Source: Candidatus Zixiibacteriota bacterium
GTDB taxonomy: Bacteria; Zixibacteria; MSB-5A5; GN15; FEB-12
Length of the DNA stretch: 64,000 bases
Reading direction: 5' to 3'
NCBI GenBank assembly: GCA_034003725.1
Contig: JAVEYB010000002.1
Location: 265,392-329,391, forward strand
Shown: piece by piece, positions 1-54,682 of the stretch
Layout of the letters: each line of letters starts with the position of its first letter
Position numbering within the stretch: the stretch's first letter is position 1
Position numbers and translations under genes: made by a program
The notes under the pieces: generated by a model
What the model saw: only the letters and a program-made list of their open reading frames with translations
Database searches by the model: none
Told to the model about the DNA's origin: nothing

Positions 1-1625
1 CGATGCTTGGAAATCGTTGCGTTCATCCGGTCGAGGATGAACAGCCGGGCCCTGCGGGCTTTGTCCAGCGCCATGCGCATGGTGTCGATATCCAGACCGG
101 TGATCTTGATATCCATCTGGATGGCGTTGACTCCTTCGCTGGTGCCGGCCACCTTGAAGTCCATGTCACCGAAGTGATCTTCATCGCCGAGGATGTCGGT
201 CAGCACGACCGTTTTGGAGTCGGACTTGATCAATCCCATGGCGATACCGGCGACCGCAGTCTTGATCGGCACGCCCGCGTCCATGAGCGCGAGCGAACCT
301 CCGCACACGGAGGCCATCGACGAAGACCCGTTAGACTCCATGATGTCCGAGACGACCCGCACCGTATACGGGAAGGCTTCCTCGTTGGGGATCACCGGGA
401 CAAGCGCCCGCTCGGCGAGGTTGCCGTGGCCGATTTCACGACGCGAGGTGCCGCGAATTGGCTTGGTCTCGCCGGTCGAGAAGGGCGGGAAGTTGTAGTG
501 GAGCATGTAGCTCTTGGTAGACTCGCCTTCGAGTTCGTCCAGGCGCTGTTCATCATACTTGGTACCGAGCGTCGCCGCCACCAGCGCCTGCGTCTGACCA
601 CGGGTGAAAAGCGCAGAGCCATGGGCGCGCGGAAGCACGCCGACTTCACAGGTAATCTCGCGGATGTCGTCAGGACCGCGGCCGTCGATACGGCGCTCTT
701 CAGTCAGGATCATGTTTCGCGCGGAGGCGCTGTCAAGATCGTGCAGCACGGTTTTGATATCGCTCTCGCACTCTTCGAATTCCTCGGCGAGGGCTTCCAG
801 AACTTCGGCTTCGATTTCTTTCTTGCGCTTGCGGCGATCTTCCTTGGCGACGATTCGGTTGGCATCGTCGAATTTTGTGCCCACGAGTTCAGTCACGCGG
901 TCGACCAGCGGTTTCTCGATGGCCACCGGCGTGTACTCGAACTGCTCCTTGCCGCACATGCGCTTGAGTTCTTCGATTTTTTCAACAATCAGCTTGATGT
1001 GATCGTGACCGAACATCAGCGCGCCGATCAGGTCTTCCTCGCTGACCTCCCGGCCGCCGCCCTCGACCATCGTGATCGCATCGGCCGAACCGGCCATGAC
1101 GATAGTCAGGTCGCTCTCTTCGAGCTGGTCGACAGTGGGGAAAACGACATACTGCCCGTCGACGCGGCCGACCCGCAGCCCCGCGACCGTCTTGGAAATC
1201 GGGACGTCCGAAATCGCAATGGCGGCCGCCGTCCCGATCAGCGCGAGGACGTCGGTATCATTCTGCTGATCGTGTGAGATGACGAAGCTGATGCACTGTG
1301 TTTCCCCCCGGAAGTCATCCGGGAACAGGGGTCGAATGGGTCGGTCGATAATGCGAGCCGACAGGATTTCCTTTTCCGACGGGCGGCCTTCGCGCTTGAA
1401 AAATCCGCCCGGGATTTTACCGGCAGCGTACGATTTCTCGCGATACTCGACCGTCAACGGGAAGAAGTCGAATCCCGATTTCGGTTCGGTGTCGGCACAG
1501 ACGGTGGAGATCACCATCGAGTCGGCGAGCCGAACCGTAACGGCTCCGTTCGCCTGCTTCGCCATTCTGCCGCTCTCGATGGTCAGGGTACGGCCACCGA
1601 TTTCTAACTCTACTGTATACGCCAT
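1..1625 (-). CDS. pnp: polyribonucleotide nucleotidyltransferase (PNPase), N-terminal 541 codons; 3' end lies beyond the window start
   Basis: My own translation of the minus strand from ATG 1625..1623 gives MAYTVELEIGGRTLTIESGRMAKQANGAVTVRLADSMVISTVCADTEPKSGFDFFPLTVEYREKSYAAGKIPGGFFKREGRPSEKEILSARIIDRPIRPLFP... The frame stays open to position 3. It is missing from the ORF track only because there is no stop in the window. The listed 3..1277 + ORF is its antisense shadow. It lies directly downstream of rpsO, the usual arrangement. Confidence 0.95.
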   Translation of the reverse strand, partial: MAYTVELEIGGRTLTIESGRMAKQANGAVTVRLADSMVISTVCADTEPKSGFDFFPLTVEYREKSYAAGKIPGGFFKREGRPSEKEILSARIIDRPIRPLFPDDFRGETQCISFVISHDQQNDTDVLALIGTAAAIAISDVPISKTVAGLRVGRVDGQYVVFPTVDQLEESDLTIVMAGSADAITMVEGGGREVSEEDLIGALMFGHDHIKLIVEKIEELKRMCGKEQFEYTPVAIEKPLVDRVTELVGTKFDDANRIVAKEDRRKRKKEIEAEVLEALAEEFEECESDIKTVLHDLDSASARNMILTEERRIDGRGPDDIREITCEVGVLPRAHGSALFTRGQTQALVAATLGTKYDEQRLDELEGESTKSYMLHYNFPPFSTGETKPIRGTSRREIGHGNLAERALVPVIPNEEAFPYTVRVVSDIMESNGSSSMASVCGGSLALMDAGVPIKTAVAGIAMGLIKSDSKTVVLTDILGDEDHFGDMDFKVAGTSEGVNAIQMDIKITGLDIDTMRMALDKARRARLFILDRMNATISKH

Positions 1626-11624: not shown

Positions 11625-13361
11625 TTATCGTTTGTCGGACAGCGTAATCGTCACACCCCAGTTCATGGGGTCCCGGGGCGGCGCCGAATTCCAATTGTTG
11701 AACGAGTGCGAGTCATCAGTGACGTAGATAACTTCGTATTCGCCTTTCGGCAATAGAACCGTGTCGTCCACTCTGCGGTTTTTGCTGGCGCCGCCGGCGT
11801 GGTCGGTCTTTCGCCAGGTCATTTCCCATACGTCCCGGCCGGTACTGCTGTCGATGATATACGCGTAGTCATACATGCGACCGCCCGTCCCTTCACCGAC
11901 AGCATAGATATGCACCCAGGAATCTTTCTTTAGCGTGAAGCGCTGCCGGAGCCGTTCCCCGTCACGGACACGGGTCAGGCGGGCCAGCACATTACTTTGC
12001 TCGCTCACTTCGTCGGCAGTCACCAGCGTAATGGCCGACGCGGTTCCCTCGCGAGACGGATACAACGCCAACCCGTAGCTGCGGGCGTCATACGGCGCTG
12101 AGGCGTTCCAGTCGTCAAATGCATGCGAGTCATCGGTCGAATAGAACGCGTAATATAGACCGGGCTCGAGGGTAATGGTGCCGTCGAACATCCGGTTTTT
12201 CTCCGCACCCCCGGCATGCGTGGTGTTCCGATAGTCCATTTCCCAGACGACGCGCCCGGTTCCCGCCTCCTGGATCGCACCATAATCCACGAACTGTTTG
12301 TCGCTGCCGCACTCACCGATGGCATACACGTGGACATCGGTGGTTTTGCTGACGCGGAACGGCTGCTCCATGAAGTCGTTATCGCGTGCCCGGGTGAAGT
12401 CGATAATGGGTTTCTGCGACTCCGGGAGGTCGATTACCGCGAATGATGCCCGATCGGAATTGCGGCCCGGCAGCAGAGTCACGCCCCAGTTGATAGGATC
12501 GTACGGGGGCGCAGTATTGAACTCTTCGTATGAATGGGAATCGTCGGTCACGGCATACAGCGTGTATTCGCCTTTGGGTAGTGAGATCTCATCGTCGTAA
12601 ACCTGGTTTTTCCTGCCGCCTCCGGCGTAGTCGGCATCCCATCGGGAGATTTCCCATACCCGTTCCCGGGTGCTATTGTTGATAATCCAGGCCTGATCAA
12701 CCGGCTCGCGGTATCCGCTCGGGAACTCAATGAGGGCATAGATGCGGATGTTCATGTCCCGATTGAGACGGAAAGCGGTTTGAAGGTATTCGGAGTCCCT
12801 CAGTTTTGTGTGCCGGATTAAGGCGTCGGGGAAGCCGCCATCGGGCGTAAACGACTTGACCTGACCGGCCGACAGACCGTCGGCAGAGATCGTGACGTGA
12901 CATTCGCGCAGTTCCTCGATGTCCTCTTCGTCCCACTCGCCTGAGAAAATCTCCGTAAACAGGTTTTTGAGGTTTATCGAGTTGTCGCCCCAGTTCCAGT
13001 GTCGACCTGCGTACATGTATAGCTCGTACTTGCCCGCCTGCAGTGATTCAGTTTCGTTAACCTGACGAAGCTGCCGGCTGCCGCGCACCCGGTCAGTAGC
13101 GCCGGGCTGCATAATCCACACGAGCTCCCGCGTATCAGTGTTCAAAATCCACGCGTACACGCTCAACTGATCAGCATCGCGCGGGCGCATTCCAACGGCG
13201 TCGATGGTCACCGAAGCGTCTTTGGTCAACTCAAACCCGGTGGCTCCCAGGTCTCCGGGTTGGAGCTTGTCGAGACGGGCGATTTCGACCGCCTCAGACG
13301 ATACCGCGGCACACACCGCAATGACGAATATGATCAGCCCGAGTCTGTTTATGTTGCGCAC
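11625..13361 (-). CDS. secreted protein of unknown function with four ~120-140-aa internal repeats
   Basis: Signal peptide MRNINRLGLIIFVIAVCAAVSSEA. Repeats 2-4 share VWE(M/I)...(H/Y)AGG..KN....D..(I/L)L..G.Y..Y..TDDSH(S/A)...(W/F)N..PP.DP..WG. Repeat 1 is degenerate. Confidence 0.85.
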   Translation of the reverse strand: MRNINRLGLIIFVIAVCAAVSSEAVEIARLDKLQPGDLGATGFELTKDASVTIDAVGMRPRDADQLSVYAWILNTDTRELVWIMQPGATDRVRGSRQLRQVNETESLQAGKYELYMYAGRHWNWGDNSINLKNLFTEIFSGEWDEEDIEELRECHVTISADGLSAGQVKSFTPDGGFPDALIRHTKLRDSEYLQTAFRLNRDMNIRIYALIEFPSGYREPVDQAWIINNSTRERVWEISRWDADYAGGGRKNQVYDDEISLPKGEYTLYAVTDDSHSYEEFNTAPPYDPINWGVTLLPGRNSDRASFAVIDLPESQKPIIDFTRARDNDFMEQPFRVSKTTDVHVYAIGECGSDKQFVDYGAIQEAGTGRVVWEMDYRNTTHAGGAEKNRMFDGTITLEPGLYYAFYSTDDSHAFDDWNASAPYDARSYGLALYPSREGTASAITLVTADEVSEQSNVLARLTRVRDGERLRQRFTLKKDSWVHIYAVGEGTGGRMYDYAYIIDSSTGRDVWEMTWRKTDHAGGASKNRRVDDTVLLPKGEYEVIYVTDDSHSFNNWNSAPPRDPMNWGVTITLSDKR

Positions 13362-18754: not shown

Positions 18755-21301
18755 ATGAAGAAACTGGTCGCGCTCTCGGGCGTCATAGTGCTGGCAGCGG
18801 GGATTTACTGGCTTCAGTACGACCGGCCGCGTTATATCACCGATGACTATCCAATCAAGGATCATCTCAGCCAGGGCGAGCGCCCCCCGAAGCCACCGGG
18901 TAAACGGCCCGGCGACTGGTTTCACGTCCAGCGAGCCTGGCCCCATGATACCCTATCAGTCGAGAAGCAATTGGTCGCAACCGAGTTCAGCCGCCAGGCG
19001 CTCGCCGCTTTCGCGCTCAAGGCCAGTGAGTCATCCGCCTGGCAGCAGGCAGGACCGACCAATATTCCGGGGCGCATTACGGCGATTGACGTCCATCCAT
19101 CGGATCTCGCGACCGTATACGCAGGTTCAGCCGCGGGCGGCGTTTTCAAATCAACTGATTCAGGTGTGACCTGGTCGCCCATCTTCGACGATGTCGGCAG
19201 CCCGGCGATCGGCGCCATCGCTATCGATCCCAGTGATCCGGCGACTGTCTACGTCGGGACCGGTGAGGCCAACCAGGGGGCCGACAACTATCCGGGGACG
19301 GGAATATACAAGTCAATCGATGCGGGGTTGACGTGGAGCCACCTCGGCCTGACCGAATCACGCCACATCGGCAGGATCATCGTGGATCCATCCAATTCGC
19401 AGCGCATCTTCGTGGCCGCTGGCGGGCGACATTTCGGCGACGGGAACCCCGTTCGTGGCGTGTATCGCTCCGACGATGGTGGCGCCACCTGGCTACAGAA
19501 ACTCTATATTTCCGATATCACGTCGTGTATAGACATCGTCTATAATCACAACGACGGCACGGTGCTGGCCGCCATGTGGGACAAAGTGCGGTATATCGAT
19601 CAGCCTACGATTCTCGGCGGGCCGAATACGGGTGTCTATCGATCCTCCAATTTCGGAGACACTTGGGCGCCGGCGGGAGGCGGCATCCCGGGGCCCTCGG
19701 ATACGCTTGGACGTATCGGACTGACGATGGCTCAGGCTTCAAACGTCGTGTACGCCATGTTTTCGAATCGAAGCGGCGAGTTTGTCAGCCTGTGGAAAAG
19801 CGTCAACAACGGGGCCACCTGGACGCGAGTGAATGACGGCGACCTGCTTGCCGCACCGTTGAACGCTTCGTGGGCAGGTGGCTGGTATTTCGGGCAGGTA
19901 CGGGTGGCGCCGTCGGATCCAGATCTTGTATTTGCCACCGGACTTGACATCTGGCGCAGCAACGACGGAGGGGCCACGTGGTTCTGGACCTCCGGCAACA
20001 TTCACGTGGATCAGCACGCCGTGTGGATCGATCCGAACAATCCAAACCGCGTATACTCCGGCGGTGATGGCGGCGTCAATTATTCGACCTCGGCCGGTAA
20101 CAGCTGGGCGGTTCGACTCAATCAGCCGAGCACGCAGTTTTACGCCATCGAGATCGACCCAAGTGATCCCAACCGTCTCTACGGCGGAACGCAGGACAAC
20201 GGTACGCTGCGCACGCTTACCGGCAACATAGATGATTGGACCGGGATTCTGGGCGGCGACGGATTCTACGTCATCGTCGATCCGACCGACCCGGACGTGA
20301 TTTACGCCGAAGCCCAGAACGGATACCTGTATAAGTCCACCGATGGTGGTTTCAACTGGGGCTGGGCGCTTTCGTCCATCAATTACAACAATTACCGGCA
20401 CAACTGGAGTACGCCGATCGCCATGGATCCGAATGACAACCTCGTGATCTACTACGGCACCAACCATTTGTTGCGCAGCATTGACGGCGCCGGCACGTTT
20501 GTCGAGATCAGCGGCGATCTGACAAACGGTCCGCATCCGCGCGGCAACTTCGGAACCATTACAACGATTGCCGTCGCGCCGTCCAACAGCAGTGTCGTGT
20601 ACGTGGGAACGGATGACGGCAACGTCTGGGTGAGTCAGAATGTCGGCGCAGGCAATACGTGGACCAGACTCGATGCCAGTCTGCCAGACCGCTGGGTGAC
20701 ACGGGTGAATGTTGATCCGCACCACGCGAACATCGCCTACGTCACCTTTTCCGGTTTCTGGGACGGGGAACCGCAGCCGCACATATTCCGGACCGAGAAC
20801 TATGGTGCGAATTGGACCGACATCGGTACGGGGCTTCCTGACTCTCCTATCAATGACGTTATCCCTGATCCGGAAGACTCATTGACGCTCTTCATCGGTA
20901 CCGACTACGGAGTGTTTACGACAATCAACCTAGGTGCGAGCTGGGCGCCGCTCGGTACCGGGCTTCCGGTAATTCCGGTTCACGATCTGGCCTTTGACCC
21001 CGGTACTCGGCTGCTGGCGGCAGGTACCCATGGCAGGTCGATGTTCACCATCGATCTGGGCGGATGCTGCACGGGACAATCGGGTAACGTCAACGATAAT
21101 ATCGCCGGTACAGTAGATCTCTCCGACCTCATCTACCTGGTCAACGCGCTTTTCCAGGGCGGACCACTGCCACCGTGCAGTGCAGCAGCCAATGTCAACG
21201 GGGACTCGAACTGTGATATCGATTTGTCCGACCTGGTCTTCCTCGTAAACTACCTGTTTATGGGAGGCCCGGCTCCGATGCCGTGCATTGCGGGCTGCTA
21301 A
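18755..21301 (+). CDS. secreted BNR/Asp-box double beta-propeller protein (sortilin/VPS10- or GH74-like) with C-terminal double dockerin-like module
   Basis: Start at ATG 18755 (AGGGAGA SD, MKKLVALSGVIVLAAGIYWL); the ORF opens at 18659. About 11 Asp-box repeats of the S.D.G.TW type are present, such as STDSGVTWSPI, SIDAGLTWSHL and SDDGGATWLQK. The C-terminus is CCTGQSGNVNDN..VDLSDLIYLVNALFQGGPLPPC...NVNGD..CDIDLSDLVFLVNYLFMGGPAP. Confidence 0.9.
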   Translation: MKKLVALSGVIVLAAGIYWLQYDRPRYITDDYPIKDHLSQGERPPKPPGKRPGDWFHVQRAWPHDTLSVEKQLVATEFSRQALAAFALKASESSAWQQAGPTNIPGRITAIDVHPSDLATVYAGSAAGGVFKSTDSGVTWSPIFDDVGSPAIGAIAIDPSDPATVYVGTGEANQGADNYPGTGIYKSIDAGLTWSHLGLTESRHIGRIIVDPSNSQRIFVAAGGRHFGDGNPVRGVYRSDDGGATWLQKLYISDITSCIDIVYNHNDGTVLAAMWDKVRYIDQPTILGGPNTGVYRSSNFGDTWAPAGGGIPGPSDTLGRIGLTMAQASNVVYAMFSNRSGEFVSLWKSVNNGATWTRVNDGDLLAAPLNASWAGGWYFGQVRVAPSDPDLVFATGLDIWRSNDGGATWFWTSGNIHVDQHAVWIDPNNPNRVYSGGDGGVNYSTSAGNSWAVRLNQPSTQFYAIEIDPSDPNRLYGGTQDNGTLRTLTGNIDDWTGILGGDGFYVIVDPTDPDVIYAEAQNGYLYKSTDGGFNWGWALSSINYNNYRHNWSTPIAMDPNDNLVIYYGTNHLLRSIDGAGTFVEISGDLTNGPHPRGNFGTITTIAVAPSNSSVVYVGTDDGNVWVSQNVGAGNTWTRLDASLPDRWVTRVNVDPHHANIAYVTFSGFWDGEPQPHIFRTENYGANWTDIGTGLPDSPINDVIPDPEDSLTLFIGTDYGVFTTINLGASWAPLGTGLPVIPVHDLAFDPGTRLLAAGTHGRSMFTIDLGGCCTGQSGNVNDNIAGTVDLSDLIYLVNALFQGGPLPPCSAAANVNGDSNCDIDLSDLVFLVNYLFMGGPAPMPCIAGC
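21065..21298 (+). other. CC-framed double dockerin-like C-terminal module, copy 1
   Basis: It has the same architecture as 31203..31439 and 52874..53092. There is also DNA-level similarity: gatctctccgacctcatctacctggtcaac here versus gatctctccgacctgatctacctggtgaac at about 31254. Confidence 0.6.
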
Positions 21302-30641: not shown

Positions 30642-31442
30642 ATGTCGCGTCTGCACCGTTACCAACGGTACGCCCTCGGAATGTGCCTGACTCTGGGCCT
30701 GCTCTGTCTGCTGCCCGGGCAGGAAGTTCAAGCGCAGGCCGAAGACCCTGGCGTTGCAGACACGGTTTCCGTGGACAGTCTCACGGTGGGGTTCGGAATC
30801 TCGTCGGTGGTGGGCATCCATCTCGCAAACGATGAGGCGCTGTCGGCAGTGGAAGTTACCATCAAGGCGTCAGACACGCTGGTCGCGATTGACTCCGCCT
30901 CCTTTCTAAACGGCCGACTGGCCGGCTATTTCGTAAAAGGCTGGGCGATCGATGACTCCAGCGGCGCCGTAACGTTTTACTGCTACCCTTCGGATGAACC
31001 GCTCCTGCAGCCCGGCACCGGACTTCTGGCGACTATTCACTTCTCTCATGAAATACTCCCGTTTTTCCCATACGACATTACGATCGACTCAGTTACCGTC
31101 GAGTTCGACCTGATTTACCGGACAACGGCACTTCGGGACAGTTTGGGAACGGTGTTTACGCCCCAATTCCGGTCCGGGATCCTACGTATCGTGGGCCAGA
31201 GTTGCTGCACGGGCTTCACCGGAAACATCAACGGTGACAGCGCAGGATCGGTGGATCTCTCCGACCTGATCTACCTGGTGAACTTTCTCTTCCTCGGGGG
31301 AGTCGAACCAATTTGCGGTGCCGCGTCCAACATCAACGGCGATGAGGGGTGTAGTATTGACCTGTCCGACCTGATTTATCTGGTCAATTTCCTCTTCCTG
31401 GGGGGGCCGAACCCTGCTGCCTGCCTGCCGTCCTGCGGCTGA
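30642..31442 (+). CDS. small secreted protein: cohesin-like beta-sandwich domain plus double dockerin-like module
   Basis: Signal peptide MSRLHRYQRYALGMCLTLGLLCLLPGQEVQAQA. The N-domain follows the cohesin pattern: VGIHLANDEALSAVEVTIKASDTLVAIDSASFLNG...GAVTF...GTGLLATIHFS...ITIDSVTVEFD...SGILRIV. The C-terminus is CCTGFTGNINGD..VDLSDLIYLVNFLFLGG..P.C...NINGD..CSIDLSDLIYLVNFLFLGGPNP. Confidence 0.8.
   Translation: MSRLHRYQRYALGMCLTLGLLCLLPGQEVQAQAEDPGVADTVSVDSLTVGFGISSVVGIHLANDEALSAVEVTIKASDTLVAIDSASFLNGRLAGYFVKGWAIDDSSGAVTFYCYPSDEPLLQPGTGLLATIHFSHEILPFFPYDITIDSVTVEFDLIYRTTALRDSLGTVFTPQFRSGILRIVGQSCCTGFTGNINGDSAGSVDLSDLIYLVNFLFLGGVEPICGAASNINGDEGCSIDLSDLIYLVNFLFLGGPNPAACLPSCG
31203..31439 (+). 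other. CC-framed double dockerin-like C-terminal module, copy 2
   Basis: See 21065..21298. There are two EF-hand-like N(V/I)NGD...DLSDL(I/V)(Y/F)LVN.LF.GGP.P segments. Confidence 0.6.
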
Positions 31443-40306: not shown

Positions 40307-41503
40307 ATGTTTATCCGCTTACGCACACTTCTCATAGCCGGCTTGATGACAGTGCTGTTATCGCTGGCGTGTGGCGATGATGACGAGCCGACCGGGCCCG
40401 ACACCGGCGCCAGCCTTTTCGACTCGATCACCCCAACATCGGGTAAGGTAGGCGATACCGTAACAATATACGGGCGTGACTTCGAGACCACGGCCGGCCC
40501 CCTGTCGCTTCGCATCGGCTACGGCTCTATCGCACCGATCTTCAGCAGCGATTCTCTGCTCAGGTTCCGGGTTCCGGGCGGCGCTACCACGGCGCGGCCG
40601 GTGTTGACACACGGGTCAGCCAATAGCGCGGCGCGTGAAGTATTCACGGTCCGGTGGCAGCACGTCTCCCCCGGACCGTCGACGAGACACATCAACGATA
40701 TCGTCCGCTTCGCGGATTACTTCGTAATTGTCGGCGATGACGGGCTGGCCATGGCCGGTTCGGCCGGGGCCTGGGCCGACAGGAGCCGCGGTACTACGAC
40801 GCACTATGCGGCAGTCGCCTTCGGTGACCGGGTTGTCGCGTCATACGGTGTTTCGCAGGTGCGGACGTTTCAACCGGAGGGTCTTGTCGATACGGTCATA
40901 GACTTCTCGACATCGTCGATCGGCGGTTATCTGCTGGCAGCGTCGGCCGACGCCGCTGTCGCAGTGCCCCGGCAGGGCGGGTTTGTCCTTACGTCGGCCG
41001 ACGGTCTCGCGTGGCAGAAGGTTGACCTCCCCGACACGGTCGCTCCGGCCGTGTTTGTTCACACCGATCGTTTCGTCATTTATTCCGGCGGCCCGGAGAT
41101 CTGGGTCTCGACCGACGGTCTCAATTGGTCCGGCGAATTCTGCAATCTGACCGCGCCGGCTCTTCGCGCGGCCTGTTGGACCGGCCAGCTGTTGATGATC
41201 GTCAAGCCGAGCGCGGTGATGTATTCGTATGACTCGCAGAATTTCTCCGAAGCTACTCCGCGCGATTTCCCGAATGCCGACTTCCTGGGCGTGAGCTGGA
41301 CCGGCGACATCTTTCTCGTCCATACCGACGACGGCCTGATCTGGTCGACCGGCGGTCCGCAGTGGGCCCGGCATGCCGAGTTCCCCGCGGTGCCGACGAC
41401 GGTGCCGAAAATTGCGTGCGACGACCGGGTGTGTATTGCGGCGGGCGGGTTCGGTAACGGCTACATGATCTGGTGGCTGACCACCGGCCAGCCCCAGCCG
41501 TAG
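40307..41503 (+). CDS. lipoprotein with N-terminal IPT/TIG domain and probable beta-propeller
   Basis: Lipobox LLSLAC. The TIG-like part is ITPTSGKVGDTVTIYGRDF...LRFRVPGGATTARPVL. The remainder is repetitive and beta-rich. GGAGAGG SD. Confidence 0.75.
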   Translation: MFIRLRTLLIAGLMTVLLSLACGDDDEPTGPDTGASLFDSITPTSGKVGDTVTIYGRDFETTAGPLSLRIGYGSIAPIFSSDSLLRFRVPGGATTARPVLTHGSANSAAREVFTVRWQHVSPGPSTRHINDIVRFADYFVIVGDDGLAMAGSAGAWADRSRGTTTHYAAVAFGDRVVASYGVSQVRTFQPEGLVDTVIDFSTSSIGGYLLAASADAAVAVPRQGGFVLTSADGLAWQKVDLPDTVAPAVFVHTDRFVIYSGGPEIWVSTDGLNWSGEFCNLTAPALRAACWTGQLLMIVKPSAVMYSYDSQNFSEATPRDFPNADFLGVSWTGDIFLVHTDDGLIWSTGGPQWARHAEFPAVPTTVPKIACDDRVCIAAGGFGNGYMIWWLTTGQPQP

Positions 41504-41557: not shown

Positions 41558-41564
41558 ATTTAAA

Positions 41565-41680
41565 CCCGGCAGCGTTCTACTCTCCCACACAGTCTCCCAT
41601 GCAGTACCATCGACGTAAACGGGCTTAACTGCTGTGTTCGGAATGGGAACAGGTGTTTCCCCGTCACTATCGCTACCGGA
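41565..41680 (-). rRNA. rrf: 5S rRNA
   Basis: The reverse complement reads CCGGTAGCGATAGTGACGGGGAAACACCTGTTCCCATTCCGAACACAGCAGTTAAGCCCGTTTACGTCGATGGTACTGCATGGGAGACTGTGTGGGAGAGTAGAACGCTGCCGGG, which carries canonical 5S motifs. Ends are accurate to a few nt. Confidence 0.9.
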
Positions 41681-41789
41681 ATATCTATCATAGTTTCTGC
41701 TGCGATGCGGTTTGGCATGCATCGCCCAACAGGCGCGCAGATCGCGCGGTTCTACGGCTTACTCTTAGAAGAGCGTTGATCGTAATTTA

Positions 41790-44803
<3,014 letters not shown>

Positions 44804-44894
44804 GATAACTCACCTAAGAGCATACCTATAGATGCAACGAATCTGCGCAGCCTGTTGGAAGATGCGCAAACCGTTTATTACAGCAGAAACTATG

Positions 44895-44909
44895 TAGTTG
44901 TCAAAGAAC
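44895..44909 (-). promoter_or_regulatory. boxA-like antitermination element in the spacer upstream of 23S
   Basis: The minus strand reads GTTCTTTGACAACTA. This is identical to the 15-mer in the 16S leader (46988..47002) and similar to E. coli rrn boxA TGCTCTTTAACAA. Confidence 0.5.
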
Positions 44910-44965
44910 CGTTGCCCGCCACCGGCGGGCTCTATCACACGCGAACTTGCGTTCGATAGCTGTCA

Positions 44966-45038
44966 TGGAGATGACCGGGATCGAACCGGTGACCTGTGGC
45001 TTGCAAAGCCACCGCTCTCCCAACTGAGCTACATCCCC
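44966..45038 (-). tRNA. tRNA-Ala (anticodon TGC)
   Basis: The reverse complement is GGGGATGTAGCTCAGTTGGGAGAGCGGTGGCTTTGCAAGCCACAGGTCACCGGTTCGATCCCGGTCATCTCCA. The G3-U70 identity pair is present. It lies in the 16S-23S spacer. Confidence 0.95.
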
Positions 45039-45052
45039 GAAATTCTCAGATA

Positions 45053-45129
45053 TGGTGGGCCTAAATGGAGTTGAACCATTGACCTCGCGCTTATCAGGCG
45101 CGCGCTCTAACCAACTGAGCTATAGGCCC
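45053..45129 (-). tRNA. tRNA-Ile (anticodon GAT), CCA encoded
   Basis: The reverse complement is GGGCCTATAGCTCAGTTGGTTAGAGCGCGCGCCTGATAAGCGCGAGGTCAATGGTTCAACTCCATTTAGGCCCACCA. Confidence 0.95.
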
Positions 45130-45286
45130 TTCCACGTAGGCCACCGCCTTACGGCAGTAACGTCATTTATATCTAAACAGCCAGCTAAAGAGCGGGCGAC
45201 ACGAAATCGCCCAAGATGCATGTCTCGAGGCTCGACCTGGATGCGATACCGGTCCGTGAGACCGGCGTGCACACCGTACTCCTTAG

Positions 45287-46838
<1,552 letters not shown>

Positions 46839-47241: not shown

Positions 47242-47620
47242 GCCCTTTCGTTAAATTTTTGTAAACCGCGGTCTGCAAGTTCATTAGTCCCGATACCCCG
47301 CCCCCTGAAAAACCGCAACCCGCAGCCCATTTCGGGCAACGCCAAGCCGTCTCATATCCTCAAAAAAACTGGCTTTTCGCGCCCCGCCCGGAACCTCGTG
47401 ATCGACCGCGACTCATTGGTGTCCGTTCGCGGCCCCGGATTGCCGGCACCGCCGTCCGACAATAATTGACACGATTATGGGCTCCCGCCCCGAACCGATA
47501 TGGGTCGCCCCGGTCAGCGGGGTCGAGCGATCGGAGTTTTTTGATTTTTGTCAAGTCGTTCCCGCAGAATCCTCCATATATTGGGCGGTAGTAGTTTCAA
47601 CCTCTGAGGGTGTATTGAGT

Positions 47621-47956
47621 ATGCTGGCAGTATCTGACAAGGCCTGTGAAGAGCTTCACAAGTTCTTCGAATCCGACCGTGGCAAAGACAACCACCTGAT
47701 CATCTTCTTCCAGGGCATGGCCTGTTCCGGACCATCGCTGGGCCTGACAGTCGACACCAAAGTCGACGAACTGGAGCGGATCGAAGCGAACGGAATCGAA
47801 GCGTATATCGACCCGAAACTTCGCGAGTTTCTGTCGCAGTTCAAGGGGATCCGAATCGACTACATCACGATGGACGACCGGTCGGGGTTTACGATCAAAG
47901 TTGAGGGCGCCGGCGGCTGCGCCAGCTGCGGCGACAAAAGCGAGCACTGCGGGTAG
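47621..47956 (+). CDS. HesB/IscA-like (A-type Fe-S carrier fold) protein, Cys form
   Basis: 111 aa from ATG 47621; the ORF opens at 47477. Sequence: MLAVSDKACEELHKFFESDRGKDNHLIIFFQGMACSGPSLGLTVDTKVDELERIEANGIEAYIDPKLREFLSQFKGIRIDYITMDDRSGFTIKVEGAGGCASCGDKSEHCG. It has the IscA-like layout, with Cys35 and a C-terminal Cys cluster. Confidence 0.82.
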   Translation: MLAVSDKACEELHKFFESDRGKDNHLIIFFQGMACSGPSLGLTVDTKVDELERIEANGIEAYIDPKLREFLSQFKGIRIDYITMDDRSGFTIKVEGAGGCASCGDKSEHCG

Positions 47957-48144: not shown

Positions 48145-50334
48145 ATGTTGGAAAAACCCGTTCAGTGGCGGCTTGCTTTCTTGCTTTGCGGCCTGATCTC
48201 TTGCCTGTCCTCAGCCAGCCTTACTGCGGCGGCAGAAGACACAACTATGAGCCGGCTGGAGTATTTGGCCACGTACGGATTCAATGCGGATTCGACCCAG
48301 AAATACCCGCTGTACATCCCAGGCGATTCTACCACGTATCTCGGCCCACGACAGACACTCTTTAGCAGACAGCACATAATCAACCAGTGGGTCGATTGCA
48401 GCCCTTCCCAAATGCCGACTTTGGTGTACTACTTCTATGCAGATTATGGTTACATAGATGTCAAGGTCGAGCCAATGGATTACAGCGTCAATTGGGATTT
48501 CTACGTGAGAACCAACGGGCTTTACCCCGAATCCGGCTCAATAGTGCTCCGAGGAGATGCTCACTCCTACGGAGAAGCAGAGGAAGGGTACTTCCACAAC
48601 GATTCCAAAGACAAGTTCGTTCTGATAATGGGACCTTCGGCTATTGACCAATGCGAGGGATTCGGTTGGGTGCAGGGAGTGACCATTACGCTCACGTACA
48701 CGCCCTACGAGTGGGATCTCCAGCTTACAAACGTGACGACCAGCACAGTATACCCCCAGAACTCAGCAACCATTACTGTGAACTGGCGAAACAATAATCC
48801 GGATAGCTTGTATGCAAGATCCAAGTTCGAGTATGGGTTCGACGTTGACCTCAAGTGGACGCCACACACGTGCTATTCGTCAGTCGATAGATCTAATCGT
48901 GTCTGGGATGATATTGCTCCATACGAAACAGTCTCGGAAACGTTCACAATCAATGGTCCTCAATCAGGGGCTATGAACGTGTTCGCCGTCATTGACGACT
49001 CGCAGGAACTACCACATTCTCCCTCGGGCGGTCCGTGGAACAACTGCTCTTCCCCTTTGCAGCTGCTTTGGTCAGTGCATCTAGAAGGTCAGTTATCATT
49101 ACTTGATCCACTGACTGCCACCTACCAGAACCTCGCTGGGTTTCAGTTTGAGTTCGTGCGCCCCGGCTGGACAACCACGGTCCTCGCCCAGGTCACCACA
49201 GATGCCAATGGACACTACACGGCTGAAATAGCCTCAGGAAACTTCGATATATATGCTCGAATCTCTTCAGAACAACCACCGCCGTACTTGCCTGTCAAGA
49301 ACTATGGCACGAGCGGGTACTTCCGCAGATCGTTCAACACCAACACCACTGCAACCGCAGCACAACATACAATCACCCTCCTTATTGATAGCTCAACTTT
49401 CGTCAGCCCTGACGCACTCTATCCTGCCTTGCGTATCACTCGCGACCTCTTCACTACCGACTCCCTGTTGTCTCAGGTTGAACCGTTCAGTTTGGCGGGC
49501 TGGGATTTCCGAAGTCTCGTTGATGTTTACATGGATACATCCGGGACCGCCACCCTCAGTGGTTGGGGGTTGGCTGGCCTCAATCCAGTGATCGTAATGC
49601 CTGCGTCGGAGTATGTTAATCAGATCGCCTGCCATGAGCTTGGGCATCAAGCCATGTATATGCTACAAAACAACGTGGTGCGGCCTCCGGCGCCCAGTTC
49701 TTCGCCGCACTGGCGGAATTCGGTCACCGATACGGTTTTCGCATTCGATGAGGGGTTCTCGGAGTTCGTCCATGGGATATCCACCAAGGACGAATTGCTC
49801 CGATCAACTACGGGGCTGACCGGCCCTCATCATCTGGAAACGAACCAGTACTGGCAGGGGACGGACTCAAATGTTGCGACGACGTACGAGGCGGATAGCG
49901 TCGAAGGTTGCGTGGCAAGTATACTGTACGACTTATATGACAACCGGACCACGCCTGCTTCGCGAACAATCGCCGAAGATGACCTTGTGCGCAGTCCGCA
50001 GTATATGCTCGAAGTCATCATGAAGAGCATCTTCAACTACCGCACTGGCGGTCAACAGACGCGGGCGCTGCGCACGTTCCTGGACAGAATGCTTCACGAC
50101 CCGGCCAATCCGTGGTTCACCGATTCGCTGGTGTTCGATCCAATGCGCACTGAGATATGCAATATCTTTCGAGACAATCACCTGACGACAGACTCCGATT
50201 TCTGCCAGGCATCAAGTATAGTATACGACATCGATACCAGCGCCACATACAACAGTCGCGCGGACCGGACAACCGAATTCTCGTCACAGCCGAGCGAGCC
50301 GACTGAAACCATGAAGAACGATGGTGACCTATGA
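48145..50334 (+). CDS. secreted multidomain HEXXH zinc-metalloprotease-like protein
   Basis: GGGGAGG SD and signal peptide MLEKPVQWRLAFLLCGLISCLSSASLTAAA. It has PPC-like, CARDB-like and carboxypeptidase-regulatory-like beta domains. The HELGH motif is at codons 497-501 (49633..49647), with a downstream FDEGFSEF as a candidate third-ligand Glu. Confidence 0.83.
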   Translation: MLEKPVQWRLAFLLCGLISCLSSASLTAAAEDTTMSRLEYLATYGFNADSTQKYPLYIPGDSTTYLGPRQTLFSRQHIINQWVDCSPSQMPTLVYYFYADYGYIDVKVEPMDYSVNWDFYVRTNGLYPESGSIVLRGDAHSYGEAEEGYFHNDSKDKFVLIMGPSAIDQCEGFGWVQGVTITLTYTPYEWDLQLTNVTTSTVYPQNSATITVNWRNNNPDSLYARSKFEYGFDVDLKWTPHTCYSSVDRSNRVWDDIAPYETVSETFTINGPQSGAMNVFAVIDDSQELPHSPSGGPWNNCSSPLQLLWSVHLEGQLSLLDPLTATYQNLAGFQFEFVRPGWTTTVLAQVTTDANGHYTAEIASGNFDIYARISSEQPPPYLPVKNYGTSGYFRRSFNTNTTATAAQHTITLLIDSSTFVSPDALYPALRITRDLFTTDSLLSQVEPFSLAGWDFRSLVDVYMDTSGTATLSGWGLAGLNPVIVMPASEYVNQIACHELGHQAMYMLQNNVVRPPAPSSSPHWRNSVTDTVFAFDEGFSEFVHGISTKDELLRSTTGLTGPHHLETNQYWQGTDSNVATTYEADSVEGCVASILYDLYDNRTTPASRTIAEDDLVRSPQYMLEVIMKSIFNYRTGGQQTRALRTFLDRMLHDPANPWFTDSLVFDPMRTEICNIFRDNHLTTDSDFCQASSIVYDIDTSATYNSRADRTTEFSSQPSEPTETMKNDGDL

Positions 50335-51401
50335 AATACTTCCTTATTACCATAACCGGCCTGGCGCTACTGACATTCTCAGCATCGCAGGCGCAGATCA
50401 ACCAGACCATAGAATTCCACACCTTCGACCAGATTGGTTTGAGATACGCCCCTCGGATAATCTCCGGCACGGTCTATTTTGAGAGTCTGCCGGAACCGCT
50501 GAAGAAGACGAGAGTTCGATTCGAAATCTACTTCAACTCCGTGGCCAACTACATTGGCGATAACCCCCTCGAACGTGACACCCTGGTGCACATTGCCTTC
50601 GAAGAATACCGGGTGGAAGTCTCAGATACGCTCTTTGTCTGGCCGGCACCAATTTACACCAACGAACCATTTAAAGGTGAGTTCGAAATAACACCGCTAA
50701 TGGCAGGAAACAGCTCCTTCGCCATTCACCTGATCGATCAACGGTTCGGGGCGCTTGGGGTTAGCTGGACCTTTGACGTTGACGGCAACCTTCTCTACCT
50801 GGGTAATCCAGCCGATACCACTCAAAAAGGAACCCGAGCTTACAAAGGCATCAACTACCCTGCCATCTTCTTTGAGGGTGACAGTATCGCTTTTGAACCA
50901 TACCCCGCATCAAATGCTCCGCCCTATGATGCATTGCGTTTCGCGTGCGTTATTACACCTGTCCCCCGAATTGGAGACACCTCGTACATCTCCTGCCGTG
51001 TCAACGCAATCAAGAGCATCGCTGATTCGGTCAGGATTGAACTTCGGAGGCGAGGCATTAGCGTACTTGGTGAACCTACAACGGCGGTGAAGTCGCTCAC
51101 AAGAGGTGAGGAGGAAGAATTTCGCACTGGGTTCGTCCCTTTGGCCGTGAACGGACCTCAGTACTTGTCATTCACTTTCAGGACAGTCGAGACCGAGCAG
51201 CAGCAAGTTATACCGCTCGACTTCGTCTTCAACAACGACAGCACTCTGCGATTCATCGGGAATCTCTTCAACTACGGCGATCATCCCCCCGATTCATATC
51301 TCCCGACTGCCTTCCAGAGTATGGAGGTCTATGAAGCGGCCCGCAAGGAAGAGAAGCGAAAAGTTGACTCTATCAAGAACGCCGGCGCCAAGCGGTTCTA
51401 A
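50331..51401 (+). CDS. secreted hypothetical protein (orphan) between the two peptidase-like genes
   Basis: 356 aa with signal peptide MKYFLITITGLALLTFSASQAQ. A 4-nt ATGA overlap with the upstream gene suggests translational coupling. It has a Lys/Glu-rich C-terminal tail and no recognised family motif. Confidence 0.78.
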   Translation: MKYFLITITGLALLTFSASQAQINQTIEFHTFDQIGLRYAPRIISGTVYFESLPEPLKKTRVRFEIYFNSVANYIGDNPLERDTLVHIAFEEYRVEVSDTLFVWPAPIYTNEPFKGEFEITPLMAGNSSFAIHLIDQRFGALGVSWTFDVDGNLLYLGNPADTTQKGTRAYKGINYPAIFFEGDSIAFEPYPASNAPPYDALRFACVITPVPRIGDTSYISCRVNAIKSIADSVRIELRRRGISVLGEPTTAVKSLTRGEEEEFRTGFVPLAVNGPQYLSFTFRTVETEQQQVIPLDFVFNNDSTLRFIGNLFNYGDHPPDSYLPTAFQSMEVYEAARKEEKRKVDSIKNAGAKRF

Positions 51402-51421: not shown

Positions 51422-53095
51422 ATGAAAACGAAACTTGTGATAGTAGCGCTGTTTGCAGCCGTGTGCCTGTCGAACGCTCAGGTACTCGCCCTCGGGCGAC
51501 TACTAATCATCACGAACGAAGAGATGAAGCCTGCGTTCGAGCACTATTCAGAATGGAAGTCGCTGTTCGGCATCCCTGCCGATATCGTCACGGTCGAATA
51601 CATCCAGACATCGTACGCCGGGGACAGCCTTCAAGTGAAGATCAGAGAGTGCCTGCGTGACTACCACAACAACCACCAGTCGGACTGGGCTATCCTCGGC
51701 GGAGATATCGACATTATCCCTCACATGATCGTTAATTCTCTCAGGGCGCATCCCGCCGGTGACACGTACTATACCAATCTGGACGGCGACTGGAACGCTA
51801 ACGGCAACGATCTTTTCGGAGAACCCCCGGGATACGGCGACCAGACGGACTATGAGCCGGATATTTTCGTCGCGCGCATCCCGTGTGTGGACAGCACCCA
51901 GGCAGCGACCGTTATTCGGAAGCTGGTCGAATACCAGTCCTGCCCGGCCGACACCAACTACCAGAATGAGGTGCTTCTGATGGGAACTCGCGTGATCGTG
52001 TCGATAGACAAGTCCGAAGACTTCTATCACCCGGTCGAAACAGAATATTTTCTGGACACCCTCATCCCCCATCTCCCAGCGAATCTCAACAGAACAAGAC
52101 TCTTCGAAGAGGCGTCACAGACCGTGAAGACGGAGTTGAGCGCCGGGTATGGCTTGATCGTCAACAACAGCCAGGCTCAATGGGCGGGCAACTTCCTCAC
52201 GCACTGGACTACCACCCCGTGGCATCGAGACGCCATTGAGTTCCCGTTTATGGCAGACTCCATGATGAACACTGGGAAATACAGCGTGTTTTTCAACTCG
52301 ACCTGCCTCAACAACTGCCTCTCCTCAACCGCTGCCATCGGCCGGCATTTTATGCTGAACCCGAATGGCGGCGGCGTTGCTTACATCGGGTCAAGCAATC
52401 TGGACTGGTTGGCCGCCAGCTACCCGGATTTCTGTTACGACATGATGGACTTGATGTTCGAGGACGGGTACGAAATCGGCAAAGCGTTCGCACTGGCAAA
52501 AGCTGCGCTGACACCCTCAGATGCCTGGCTTGACAACTACCGTCGGTTCGCCTACCACGCCTATATGCTGCTTGGAGATCCCCAGCTCAGCGTGTTCTCT
52601 GATGTCCCAAAAACACTGCGCAGCTCGCTCTCGATTCCACTTACGCCCGGCCAGATGACCTTTGTCGTGGCCGTGATATCGGACTCGGGCGAATCGGTGG
52701 CTGGCGCAACCGTATGCCTGACCCAGGACAGCACGGTATATGTAACCAGGCAGACCGATGGACTCGGGATCGCTACCTTCAGCGATGTTCTCTTTGAACA
52801 TGAAGGACTTGCGACAATCGGCATGATGAAGAGCGGCTACCTGATGCATCTCGATTCCGTGTTCGTAGGCGCCTGCTGTCTTGGTGTCCGGGGCAATGTA
52901 AACGGCGACCAACAGGATATCTGCGATCTAGCAGACCTTATGTTCCTTGTCAACTACCTCTTGCAAGGCGGGGCCGCACCTGAATGCTTTGACGAAGCAG
53001 ATCTCAACGCCGACGGTTCCATTGATTTGAGTGACGAGATTTACCTCACGAATTATTTGTTCCTGGGTGGTCAGGTACCTTACGATTGCCAGTAA
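51422..53095 (+). CDS. peptidase C25 (gingipain)-like secreted protein with double dockerin-like C-terminus
   Basis: AGGGAGGA SD and signal peptide MKTKLVIVALFAAVCLSNAQ. The C25 pattern is LLIITNEE...W.SLFGI...WAILGGDIDIIP...YTNLDGDW...EPDIFVARIP...VIRKLVEYQ. The candidate dyad is His261 (LTHW) and Cys295 (NSTCLNN), 34 residues apart. The C-terminus is CCLGVRGNVNGD..CDLADLMFLVNYLLQGG..P.C...LNADGSIDLSDEIYLTNYLFLGG. Confidence 0.86.
   Translation: MKTKLVIVALFAAVCLSNAQVLALGRLLIITNEEMKPAFEHYSEWKSLFGIPADIVTVEYIQTSYAGDSLQVKIRECLRDYHNNHQSDWAILGGDIDIIPHMIVNSLRAHPAGDTYYTNLDGDWNANGNDLFGEPPGYGDQTDYEPDIFVARIPCVDSTQAATVIRKLVEYQSCPADTNYQNEVLLMGTRVIVSIDKSEDFYHPVETEYFLDTLIPHLPANLNRTRLFEEASQTVKTELSAGYGLIVNNSQAQWAGNFLTHWTTTPWHRDAIEFPFMADSMMNTGKYSVFFNSTCLNNCLSSTAAIGRHFMLNPNGGGVAYIGSSNLDWLAASYPDFCYDMMDLMFEDGYEIGKAFALAKAALTPSDAWLDNYRRFAYHAYMLLGDPQLSVFSDVPKTLRSSLSIPLTPGQMTFVVAVISDSGESVAGATVCLTQDSTVYVTRQTDGLGIATFSDVLFEHEGLATIGMMKSGYLMHLDSVFVGACCLGVRGNVNGDQQDICDLADLMFLVNYLLQGGAAPECFDEADLNADGSIDLSDEIYLTNYLFLGGQVPYDCQ
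52874..53092 (+). other. CC-framed double dockerin-like C-terminal module, copy 3
   Basis: See 21065..21298 and 31203..31439. Confidence 0.6.
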
Positions 53096-53788: not shown

Positions 53789-54073
53789 TTTTCTCTTAAT
53801 GTCTCCGTAACAACCAGACGCGTCAGGATCCGACCGGAAGCGGTCCGGTTGTGTCACACCTGACTAAGCCGGCTGCAATCGTCCGCATCGCATTACGGTG
53901 CCGATTCTGTGCGTCCGCATGATCCTTTCGTGAAATCAGCTTCTTCGGCCCCATACGACGCGTGTTGCATTGCAAGCACTTCGCACTTCGGCACCGAACT
54001 TGCATTCTTCCCGGTTCACACGCGGAACGGGGGCACATCATGTGACAGCCTTCGACGCAGGGAGGTACCGAAG

Positions 54074-54682
54074 ATGAAACACGCGCTGCGCGCACTCATC
54101 GCCGGAATGATCATCCTCCTCGTTGGCCCGGGTTCGGACATCGTCGCATTTCCACTGACAACTATCGACTTTGATGATCTTTCCGACGGAACGTTGGTCA
54201 GTGACCAGTATGCCGCGCTCGGTATCACGTTTGCCGGATATGACATATTCGGCTCACGCGATATACGATCGGGCTATTTCGGAGGACCGTCGGGCACAAT
54301 CGTGCTCGATTCGTATTGTAACGGCGGGGGGTATATCCAGGCCACGTTTACCGGACCGGTCGACTTCGTGTCAGTCGACTTCCAGCTCTTCGAGGGCGAT
54401 GATCCGTTGACACTCGAACTGTACAATGCGGCCGGGGAAATCGTAGTCAGCCGGACGGTTTTCGGGCTCGATGATCAGTGGTACACGCTGACGGCGCGAT
54501 CTGCCGCCCAGGACGTAGCCTTCGCCCGATTCTATGGATTCGGCGACGACGGAGTAAACGCCGTGTACAACGACAACATCTCATTCGGAAACTCTGCCGT
54601 CATACCGGAGCCCGCCACATTTGGACTGGTCGGCCTGGGGTTGTTGTCGCTCGCCGTAGTACGACGGCAGCATCGGCGATAG
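54074..54682 (+). CDS. PEP-CTERM sorting-domain protein
   Basis: GGAGG SD and ATG 54074 (MKHALRALIAGMIILLVGPG). The C-terminus VIPEPATFGLVGLGLLSLAVVRRQHRR has the PEP motif, a TM helix and a basic tail. The ORF opens at 53909. Confidence 0.85.
   Translation: MKHALRALIAGMIILLVGPGSDIVAFPLTTIDFDDLSDGTLVSDQYAALGITFAGYDIFGSRDIRSGYFGGPSGTIVLDSYCNGGGYIQATFTGPVDFVSVDFQLFEGDDPLTLELYNAAGEIVVSRTVFGLDDQWYTLTARSAAQDVAFARFYGFGDDGVNAVYNDNISFGNSAVIPEPATFGLVGLGLLSLAVVRRQHRR

Follow-up and report, generated by a model that had tools for sequence, protein, structure and literature searches.

The textbook case of programmable protein assembly outside the cell is the cohesin–dockerin system, studied mostly in Gram-positive cellulose degraders. 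The dockerin fold and its cohesin-binding surface are stabilized by a non-covalent “intramolecular clasp” between the N- and C-termini, in which residues ahead of the first Ca loop contact the C-terminus (Slutzki et al. 2013, PMC3821032); clasps known so far work by stacking or electrostatics, and no cysteine or disulfide is mentioned in that paper. Cohesins and dockerins also occur outside cellulosomes, in all three domains of life (Peer et al. 2009, as cited in passages of PMC9012536 and PMC10066038), and such modules have been noted in anaerobic methanotrophic (ANME) archaea (PMC9012536) and in Omnitrophota (PMC10066038). Here we analyze a stretch of 64,000 nucleotides (“the window”) from the genome of a Candidatus Zixiibacteriota bacterium (assembly GCA_034003725.1, contig JAVEYB010000002.1, positions 265,392 to 329,391), in which three secreted proteins end in the same module. 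Our results suggest that this module is a divergent, cysteine-framed dockerin, that its relatives sit on a wide range of exported proteins, and that some of them directly follow a cohesin-like domain in the same polypeptide.

Three secreted proteins end in the same module

Translations of protein 1 (18755..21301), protein 2 (30642..31442) and protein 3 (51422..53095) share a C-terminal module of 73–79 amino acids. The parts of the three genes are as follows.

18755..21064, + strand: cargo 1 (protein 1); hydrophobic N-terminus (signal or anchor) followed by a BNR/Asp-box β-propeller
21065..21298, + strand: module copy 1; 78 amino acids, six cysteines, C-terminus of protein 1 (stop codon 21299..21301)
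30642..30740, + strand: signal peptide region of protein 2 (MSRLHRYQRYALGMCLTLGLLCLLPGQEVQAQA), read from the sequence; helix at residues 4–21 in the model; putative cleavage site
30741..31202, + strand: cohesin-like β-sandwich of protein 2 (residues 34–187), ending 2–3 residues before the CC of the module
31203..31439, + strand: module copy 2; 79 amino acids, six cysteines, C-terminus of protein 2
51422..52873, + strand: cargo 3 (protein 3); signal peptide, Peptidase_C25 (residues 28–390), Ig-like domain (residues 408–456)
52874..53092, + strand: module copy 3; 73 amino acids, five-cysteine variant, its second Ca loop of canonical form (12 residues), C-terminus of protein 3

In full-length BLASTP comparisons among the three proteins, similarity was confined to the last 75–86 residues (E 8e-32, 8e-20 and 8e-21), with no match below E 0.6 outside the module. 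Pfam places the N-terminal parts in different families: Sortilin-Vps10/BNR for protein 1, no family for protein 2, and Peptidase_C25 for protein 3. Coordinates, alignment, BLASTP and Pfam families thereby bear out the preliminary description of this stretch, made from the sequence alone, which had reported one C-terminal module on three proteins with unrelated N-termini. Cargo 1 matches Pfam Sortilin-Vps10 (3.7e-23) and BNR, as well as the NCBIfam F510_1955-type glycosylhydrolase model (1.4e-39, under that model's cut-off); cargo 3 matches Pfam Peptidase_C25 (2.4e-44), DUF7382 and CarboxypepD_reg. Identity of protein 3 as PorU was rejected, the similarity being faint (30 bits against an NCBIfam cut-off of 420). 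NCBI names protein 1 “glycosyl hydrolase” (MDX9856959.1), protein 2 “hypothetical protein” and protein 3 “C25 family cysteine peptidase” (MDX9856978.1), and the module goes unmentioned in all three.

An alignment of the three copies has 33 invariant columns out of 78, among them C1, C2, C38, C74 and both D-L-(S/A)-D...L-x-N-x-L...G-G-x-x-P helices; copies 2 and 3 are 64% and 51% identical to copy 1, respectively. A hidden Markov model (HMM) built from them and searched against the six-frame translation of the window recovered copies 1–3 only (E 1e-40 to 1e-44; runner-up E 2.3). Each module is itself an internal duplication, with repeats that align over 22–34 residues and are near-identical within copies 1 and 2 and more diverged within copy 3. 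At the DNA level, the 30-nt stretch gatctctccgacct[c/g]atctacctggt[c/g]aac does occur in copies 1 and 2, as had been noted; the pairwise DNA identity of the module copies overall is merely 55–66%, so that the common stretch reflects a conserved peptide and codon usage, and recent origin of the three copies by duplication, or gene conversion between them, is rejected. Judged by their sequences, the copies are paralogues of long standing, constrained at the protein level.

The module is a predicted type-I-like dockerin

Copy 3 scores 29.1 bits against Pfam Dockerin_1 (PF00404; gathering cut-off 22.9), and its second loop gives weak Pfam EF-hand_5 and EF-hand_1 matches. Copies 1 and 2 had no Pfam match to the module, and a single-sequence search of the PDB with copy 2 returned no match. 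A profile of 50 diverse family members found 22 chains in the PDB, every one a dockerin, with 4fl4_A in first place (E 1.3e-4); in its alignment to 4FL4 and 2Y3N, the Ca-ligand D/N positions and both helices are superimposed, with loop insertions of 1–2 residues. The sequence thus contains a duplicated segment, each half an EF-hand-like Ca loop (D/N at positions 1, 3, 5, 9 and 12) followed by a helix.

Structure prediction points the same way. An AlphaFold model of copy 1, computed with a 129-sequence alignment, reached a predicted local distance difference test score (pLDDT) of 94.7 and a predicted template modeling score of 0.83; it contains helices at residues 19–30, 39–42 and 54–65 and a β-bridge between residues 5 and 73, which brings the two termini next to each other. 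In a Foldseek search of the PDB with this model, the top 30 matches are all dockerins, with target-normalized template modeling scores (TMt) of 0.57–0.84 and root-mean-square deviations (rmsd) of 1.6–3.9 Å, mostly 1.6–2.3 Å (for example 5nrk_B, TMt 0.81, rmsd 1.6 Å). Copy 2, modeled within full-length protein 2, has pLDDT 73–90 and helices at residues 206–218, 226–229 and 241–253. The modeled module therefore has the three-helix fold of a dockerin, its two main helices antiparallel and its N- and C-termini adjacent. The suggestion in the preliminary description that the two halves resemble the duplicated EF-hand-like segments of type I dockerins is borne out by the internal repeats, the PDB profile matches and the predicted structure, and we conclude from sequence and model that the module is a genuine but divergent type-I-like dockerin: two tandem F-hand repeats (loop plus helix) in a three-helix bundle.

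Standard annotation largely misses it. The Pfam Dockerin model recognizes (E ≤ 1e-3) 8 of 39 relatives in one set and 1 of 10 in a set of metagenome open reading frames (ORFs). No dedicated NCBIfam model for the module was found, the only match being a weak one to the C-terminal end of NF045500 (“Omp28-related selenoprotein”); the modules of proteins 2 and 3 match its C-terminal 60 positions weakly, and the NF045500 family apparently ends in a similar module. One relative already carries the NCBI name “dockerin type I repeat-containing protein”.

Spread, copy number and cargo

A word-indexed homologue search with the three-copy alignment gave 4 matches, a limitation of the index, and an exhaustive profile search was used instead. 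Among 1.84 billion representatives of 50%-identity protein clusters, it found 28,741 proteins at E ≤ 1e-3; a threshold of E ≤ 1e-10 left 4,437, and one of E ≤ 1e-30 left 43. Nearly all of the top matches bear the module at the extreme C-terminus, and most have the CC...C...C frame. Named matches come mainly from Zixibacteria, with one from Calditrichaeota, and most have no precomputed Pfam domain; the six-cysteine “DLSDLIYLVNYLFLGG” flavor occurs mainly in this clade, among the matches seen.

Loci in related genomes were found by a scan with two narrow peptide patterns. The scan returned 39 loci, 35 from a related metagenome-assembled genome (MAG), MAG50 (JAHLKV01), and 4 from other Zixibacteria MAGs, and orthologues of proteins 1 and 2 are among them; with neighboring genes included, these loci and the window hold 62 module-bearing ORFs. 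MAG50 has at least 54 distinct instances of the module in the part of its genome covered, almost always 0–5 residues from the stop codon. Across these 54 paralogues both helices (DLSDLIYLVNYLFLGGPAP) are 80–99% conserved on unrelated cargoes, as would be expected if all copies serve one shared partner; other family sequences, from mostly unknown organisms, have different helix motifs (e.g. DISDLVYLVDYMF). Further copies in the window's own MAG are P0162, on the same 464,501-bp contig, and P0163 (RBT76_09800).

The cargo in MAG50 includes Peptidase_C25 (three proteins), S8 (two), M14, M4 and PAD_porph families, PKD domains, BNR propellers, lectins and β-helix proteins. Signal-peptide-like N-termini are present in 34 of 37 cargoes, and the cargo as a whole is protease-rich (C25, C10, S8, M4, M14, M43).

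These counts allow a wider claim to be judged, namely that the module is a lineage-specific sorting or assembly tag in heavy use in its genome. Heavy use agrees with the instances in MAG50 and with the two further copies in the window's own MAG; the exhaustive profile search led well beyond three proteins, and the 4,437 clusters at E ≤ 1e-10 do not fit a lineage-specific element. Assembly is the part of the claim that fits, while sorting is contradicted by relatives in which a sorting domain of the type IX secretion system (T9SS) follows the module, as discussed below.

Some proteins carry more than one copy. Four metagenome proteins from outside the window (P0005, P0006, P0012 and P0093) contain 7–12 tandem dockerin modules; some such proteins end in an S8 peptidase or have a peptidoglycan-binding domain, and others alternate dockerin and cohesin domains (Doc-Coh-Doc-Coh), architectures that are unlike those of classical scaffoldins. 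In MAG50, three loci (L016:3789-5246, residues 108–171; L018:5467-8649; L024:1-1089) encode proteins with two modules, a divergent low-cysteine dockerin upstream and a four- or six-cysteine module at the C-terminus. They recall the double-dockerin of C. thermocellum Clo1313_0689 (PDB 8X39), which is itself among the structural matches.

A cohesin-like domain directly precedes some modules

Protein 2 offers a candidate partner. Its N-terminal domain, described earlier as cohesin-like, is modeled with low confidence as a β-sandwich of ten strands (block pLDDT about 50–69), against nine in the cohesin jelly-roll, and Foldseek ranks cohesins first among its matches (5nrm_A, E 3.5e-6; 2jh2_C, TMt 0.63). 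An iterated HMM seeded from this domain recovers eight more proteins from the genome loci in which it directly precedes the module. Two members of the resulting family score 27.7 and 20.5 bits against Pfam Cohesin (PF00963; gathering cut-off 24.1), and the best PDB matches of the family profile are cohesins (4uyp_A, E 0.003; 2xdh_A, E 0.015). Fold search, relatives that reach Pfam Cohesin and profile search together support, at the level of sequence and model, a putative divergent cohesin in protein 2.

Metagenomes were scanned for the domain with a three-sequence alignment, since a seven-sequence alignment was too divergent. The scan gave 12 independent loci, and in 14 of 14 ORFs a C-terminal cysteine-framed dockerin follows the cohesin-like domain; over related genomes and metagenomes, the domain stands directly before the module in 25 ORFs. 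Co-occurrence of the module with cohesin-like domains is therefore found within single polypeptides, in genome loci and metagenomes alike. The spacing to the module is constant in the metagenome ORFs at about 46 residues, and as these residues are the rest of the cohesin domain, the linker between cohesin and dockerin (Coh-Doc) is just about 2–5 residues. Ahead of this pair lie C10 peptidases (three times), S8 peptidases (three times), an M43 and a C39-like peptidase, then PKD; among ten such ORFs, Pfam reports Dockerin in one and Cohesin in none. Other architectures among the cluster representatives are Doc-Coh-Doc and Coh..Doc-Doc. Protein 2 is the minimal form of the cassette, consisting of signal peptide, Coh and Doc.

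Conserved cysteines

The cysteines of the module, reported earlier as a feature that classical dockerins lack, are kept far outside the window, in family members and in related genomes. Because the exhaustive search was seeded with cysteine-containing copies, cysteine frequencies drawn from it are biased. Among its full-length instances, the dominant patterns are (1, 2, 38, 74), found 45 times, and (1, 2, 38, 50, 74, 78), found 38 times; counts per module are overwhelmingly even, mostly 4 or 6, and form nested sets of 2, 4 or 6. The loop cysteine 50 and the tail cysteine 78 are both present in 41 instances and both missing in 53, with 7 instances of the loop cysteine only and none of the tail cysteine only (Fisher's test p = 2e-21, relatedness ignored). 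The classes coexist within one genome, which has 23 six-cysteine and 14 four-cysteine modules plus low-cysteine variants; the latter have a single cysteine ahead of the first loop and one after the last GGPxP (C74).

From the nested sets and the 5–73 strand register of the model, we infer up to three disulfides: C2-C74 as an N-to-C clasp, C1-C38 to the inter-repeat linker, and C50-C78 from the second loop to the C-terminal tail. The cysteines would then be disulfide staples, a covalent form of the non-covalent dockerin clasp.

Proposed assembly and alternative explanations

We consider it rather likely, on the strength of sequence and modeling, that the module is a docking plug that binds cohesin-like sockets, with Coh-Doc proteins as connectors, and that the outcome is a protease-rich assembly outside the cell or on its surface. 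Sec-exported hydrolases and binding proteins would carry the module at their extreme C-terminus; outside the cytoplasm it would fold, probably locked by one, two or three disulfides; and it would plug into divergent cohesin-like domains encoded in the same genome, here that of protein 2 and elsewhere those of [peptidase]-PKD-Coh-Doc proteins. As socket and plug in one, Coh-Doc proteins could chain or branch, and proteins with a dockerin only, like proteins 1 and 3, would be terminal cargo. Such an assembly would gather proteases (C25, C10, S8, M4, M14, M43), a peptidyl-arginine deiminase, BNR propellers, and lectin and PKD proteins. The complex may be anchored at the cell surface or released.

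Several points weigh against this reading. In most copies position 1 of the Ca loop is Asn rather than Asp, and the loops exceed the canonical length by 1–2 residues, which makes Ca binding by the module, and any Ca2+ dependence of docking, an assumption. The cohesin assignment rests on a model of full-length protein 2 with a mean pLDDT of 59.8; protein 2 itself has no Pfam Cohesin match, and the sequence link to cohesins is transitive or weak. Neither a cohesin-bearing anchor nor a multi-cohesin scaffoldin turned up, and every cohesin-like domain seen is fused to a dockerin, in searches that were all seeded from dockerin-bearing proteins; given this seeding, the absence of a cohesin-only anchor is uninformative. 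With almost no linker between them, Coh and Doc could form a rigid structural dyad, in which case the cohesin would not be a free socket. Finally, the disulfide pairs derive from co-occurrence and register only, and the co-occurrence statistics ignore relatedness.

The strict C-terminal position (0–5 residues from the end in nearly all of the 62 ORFs) and the dozens of cargoes per genome would also suit a secretion or sorting signal for an outer-membrane translocon or a sortase-like enzyme, analogous to the C-terminal domain (CTD) of T9SS substrates. The cargo set resembles that of Bacteroidota T9SS (C25 gingipain-like peptidases, PAD_porph, M14, PKD), and one cargo is the C25 peptidase with faint PorU similarity. 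Classical dockerins, however, are likewise usually C-terminal; the module has a three-helix dockerin fold in place of the β-sandwich of T9SS CTDs; it matches neither Por_Secre_tail nor other sorting-signal models; and it also occurs in arrays of up to 12 copies and in Doc-Coh-Doc proteins. In relatives, including P0110 with its six-cysteine-type module, a genuine Por_Secre_tail, FlgD_ig or CHU_C domain comes after the module, which is then internal. A real T9SS sorting domain downstream implies that the module is independent of the T9SS signal and is a docking unit, not a secretion signal, and we hold the sorting explanation to be highly improbable. The specific candidates were rejected as well: a T9SS CTD (β-sandwich of ~70–100 residues; Por_Secre_tail, CHU_C, TIGR04183-type) by the helical fold and the lack of a profile match, and a PEP-CTERM or LPXTG-type signal because the modules end ...P-x-x-C(-x3-C) and have no hydrophobic helix.

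It is also conceivable, if unlikely in our view, that the dockerin fold serves as a Ca-dependent adhesion domain for a ligand other than cohesin (a surface glycan, lipopolysaccharide, S-layer or substrate), the cohesin-like β-sandwich being an X-module-like support. The linker of ~2–5 residues and its constant spacing are reminiscent of rigid type II/III X-Doc dyads; a cohesin-like domain is missing from most proteins with the module, proteins 1 and 3 among them; the dockerin-seeded searches found no cohesin-only anchor; and non-cellulosomal dockerins of other uncultivated phyla have been suggested to be adhesins (PMC10066038). By fold and profile searches, however, the β-sandwich matches cohesins and not X-modules, and the duplicated helices are nearly identical to each other, in keeping with the symmetric surface by which type I dockerins bind cohesins. 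Archaeal pairs with verified binding reportedly include Archaeoglobus fulgidus proteins that have both modules. That archaeal non-cellulosomal cohesin–dockerin pairs have been verified to bind is stated in a passage of PMC9012536. For the cysteines, an alternative to disulfides is that they are metal ligands (e.g. a Zn-Cys4 site extended to Cys6) that keep the dockerin stable where the habitat is reducing and sulfidic. A vicinal CC and two further invariant cysteines do cluster where termini and linker meet, and anoxic sediments, a frequent source of Zixibacteria MAGs, would make extracellular disulfides less stable. Against this, the nested sets grow by two cysteines at a time, two-cysteine variants cannot make a metal site, and the loop and tail cysteines are gained and lost as a pair; metal binding appears quite improbable.

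Returning to the docking plug, a broader and more tentative proposal, which we regard as possible and somewhat doubtful, is that Zixibacteria and allied uncultivated lineages have an undescribed assembly system of disulfide-stapled dockerins and fused, chaining cohesins, forming a cell-surface or free “proteolysome” of dozens of peptidases and binding proteins. If true, the proteolysome would be the protein-degrading counterpart of the cellulosome in presumed two-membrane bacteria, mostly invisible to current domain annotation.

Genomic setting

A dedicated gene cluster for the tagged proteins was rejected, as the three genes are scattered among housekeeping genes; those in the window include IF-2, NusA, ProRS, EF-G, PFK and a CcmF-like gene, and an ABC-2 transporter is present too. 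The window also holds a ribosomal RNA operon.

41564..46838, - strand: complete rRNA operon; 16S 45287..46838; two tRNAs 44966..45129; 23S 41791..44803; 5S 41564..41680

Directly 5' of the gene for protein 3 lie two overlapping co-directional ORFs, 48145..50334 (+) and 50331..51401 (+). Both have signal-peptide-like N-termini, no Pfam or NCBIfam family and no module, and the first (729 residues) has a HELGH motif of the zinc-metallopeptidase type; the pair and the C25 gene may be an operon for secreted proteins. Further along, 53909..54682 (+) encodes a 257-residue protein with a C-terminal PEP-CTERM sorting motif (Pfam PF07589, 27.2 bits), so a sorting tag of exosortase type, different from the dockerin module, is in use in the genome as well. 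An IscA/HesB-like protein is encoded at 47477..47956 (+), and its top NCBIfam matches are the selenoprotein-associated IscA_HesB_Se and HesB_rel_seleno. Three sizeable ORFs with little or no family assignment, 40307..41503 (+), 11625..13361 (-) and 3..1277 (+), all have no module; one has an IPT/TIG domain only and the other two have no Pfam match.

Comparison with known systems

Recognizing the tag would alter genome-based inference of extracellular protein degradation by Zixibacteria and their relatives. A large protease-centered dockerin repertoire is seen in a phylum widespread in sediment and soil, and it is for the most part overlooked by standard annotation. Naturally disulfide-locked dockerins, if real, would be useful parts for designer enzyme complexes in low calcium or harsh conditions, and the nested 2/4/6-cysteine series makes a concrete prediction for the evolution of dockerin stability.

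The closest described relatives are the type I dockerins of clostridial cellulosomes (PF00404; PDB 4FL4, 1OHZ, 2CCL, 5NRK). The module shares with them two tandem repeats of ~22–35 residues, each an EF-hand-like loop plus helix; a three-helix fold with adjacent termini; a C-terminal place on secreted enzymes; nearly identical repeats, with potential for dual binding modes; and many paralogues per genome with a conserved binding face. It differs from them in its 2, 4 or 6 conserved cysteines (CC at the entry, C after each GGPxP, and an optional loop and tail pair), in loops that are 1–2 residues longer with Asn at position 1, in a conserved GGPxP extension after each helix, in its host (an uncultivated, presumably diderm Zixibacteria lineage), in a cargo of mostly peptidases and proteins other than carbohydrate-active enzymes, and in that most copies score under the Pfam threshold. 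Like the clasp dockerins (PMC3821032), the module has paired termini in its model, through the 5–73 β-bridge; in contrast to the known clasps, the contact here would be covalent and would take in the linker and second loop too.

Compared with T9SS CTDs (Por_Secre_tail, CHU_C and FlgD_ig types), the module is similar in its extreme C-terminal position, its dozens of cargoes, the kind of cargo (C25, PAD, M14, PKD) and its occurrence within the Fibrobacteres–Chlorobi–Bacteroidetes (FCB) superphylum, yet it has another fold and no sequence relation to them, and the two co-occur in one polypeptide in relatives. A search of the open-access full-text literature found no description of the cysteine-stapled subfamily, of the fixed [peptidase]-PKD-Coh-Doc cassette, or of the scale seen in Zixibacteria. 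As in other non-cellulosomal cohesin–dockerin systems, the modules occur outside cellulose degraders, often on proteases, binding proteins and adhesins, some proteins have both modules, and no large scaffoldins were seen, here in searches seeded from dockerin-bearing proteins; what also sets this system apart from those is its unusual scale, with at least 54 copies in part of one genome. In conclusion, the module involves no new principle; it is a large, under-annotated and protease-centered extension of cohesin–dockerin biology into an uncultivated, presumably diderm phylum.

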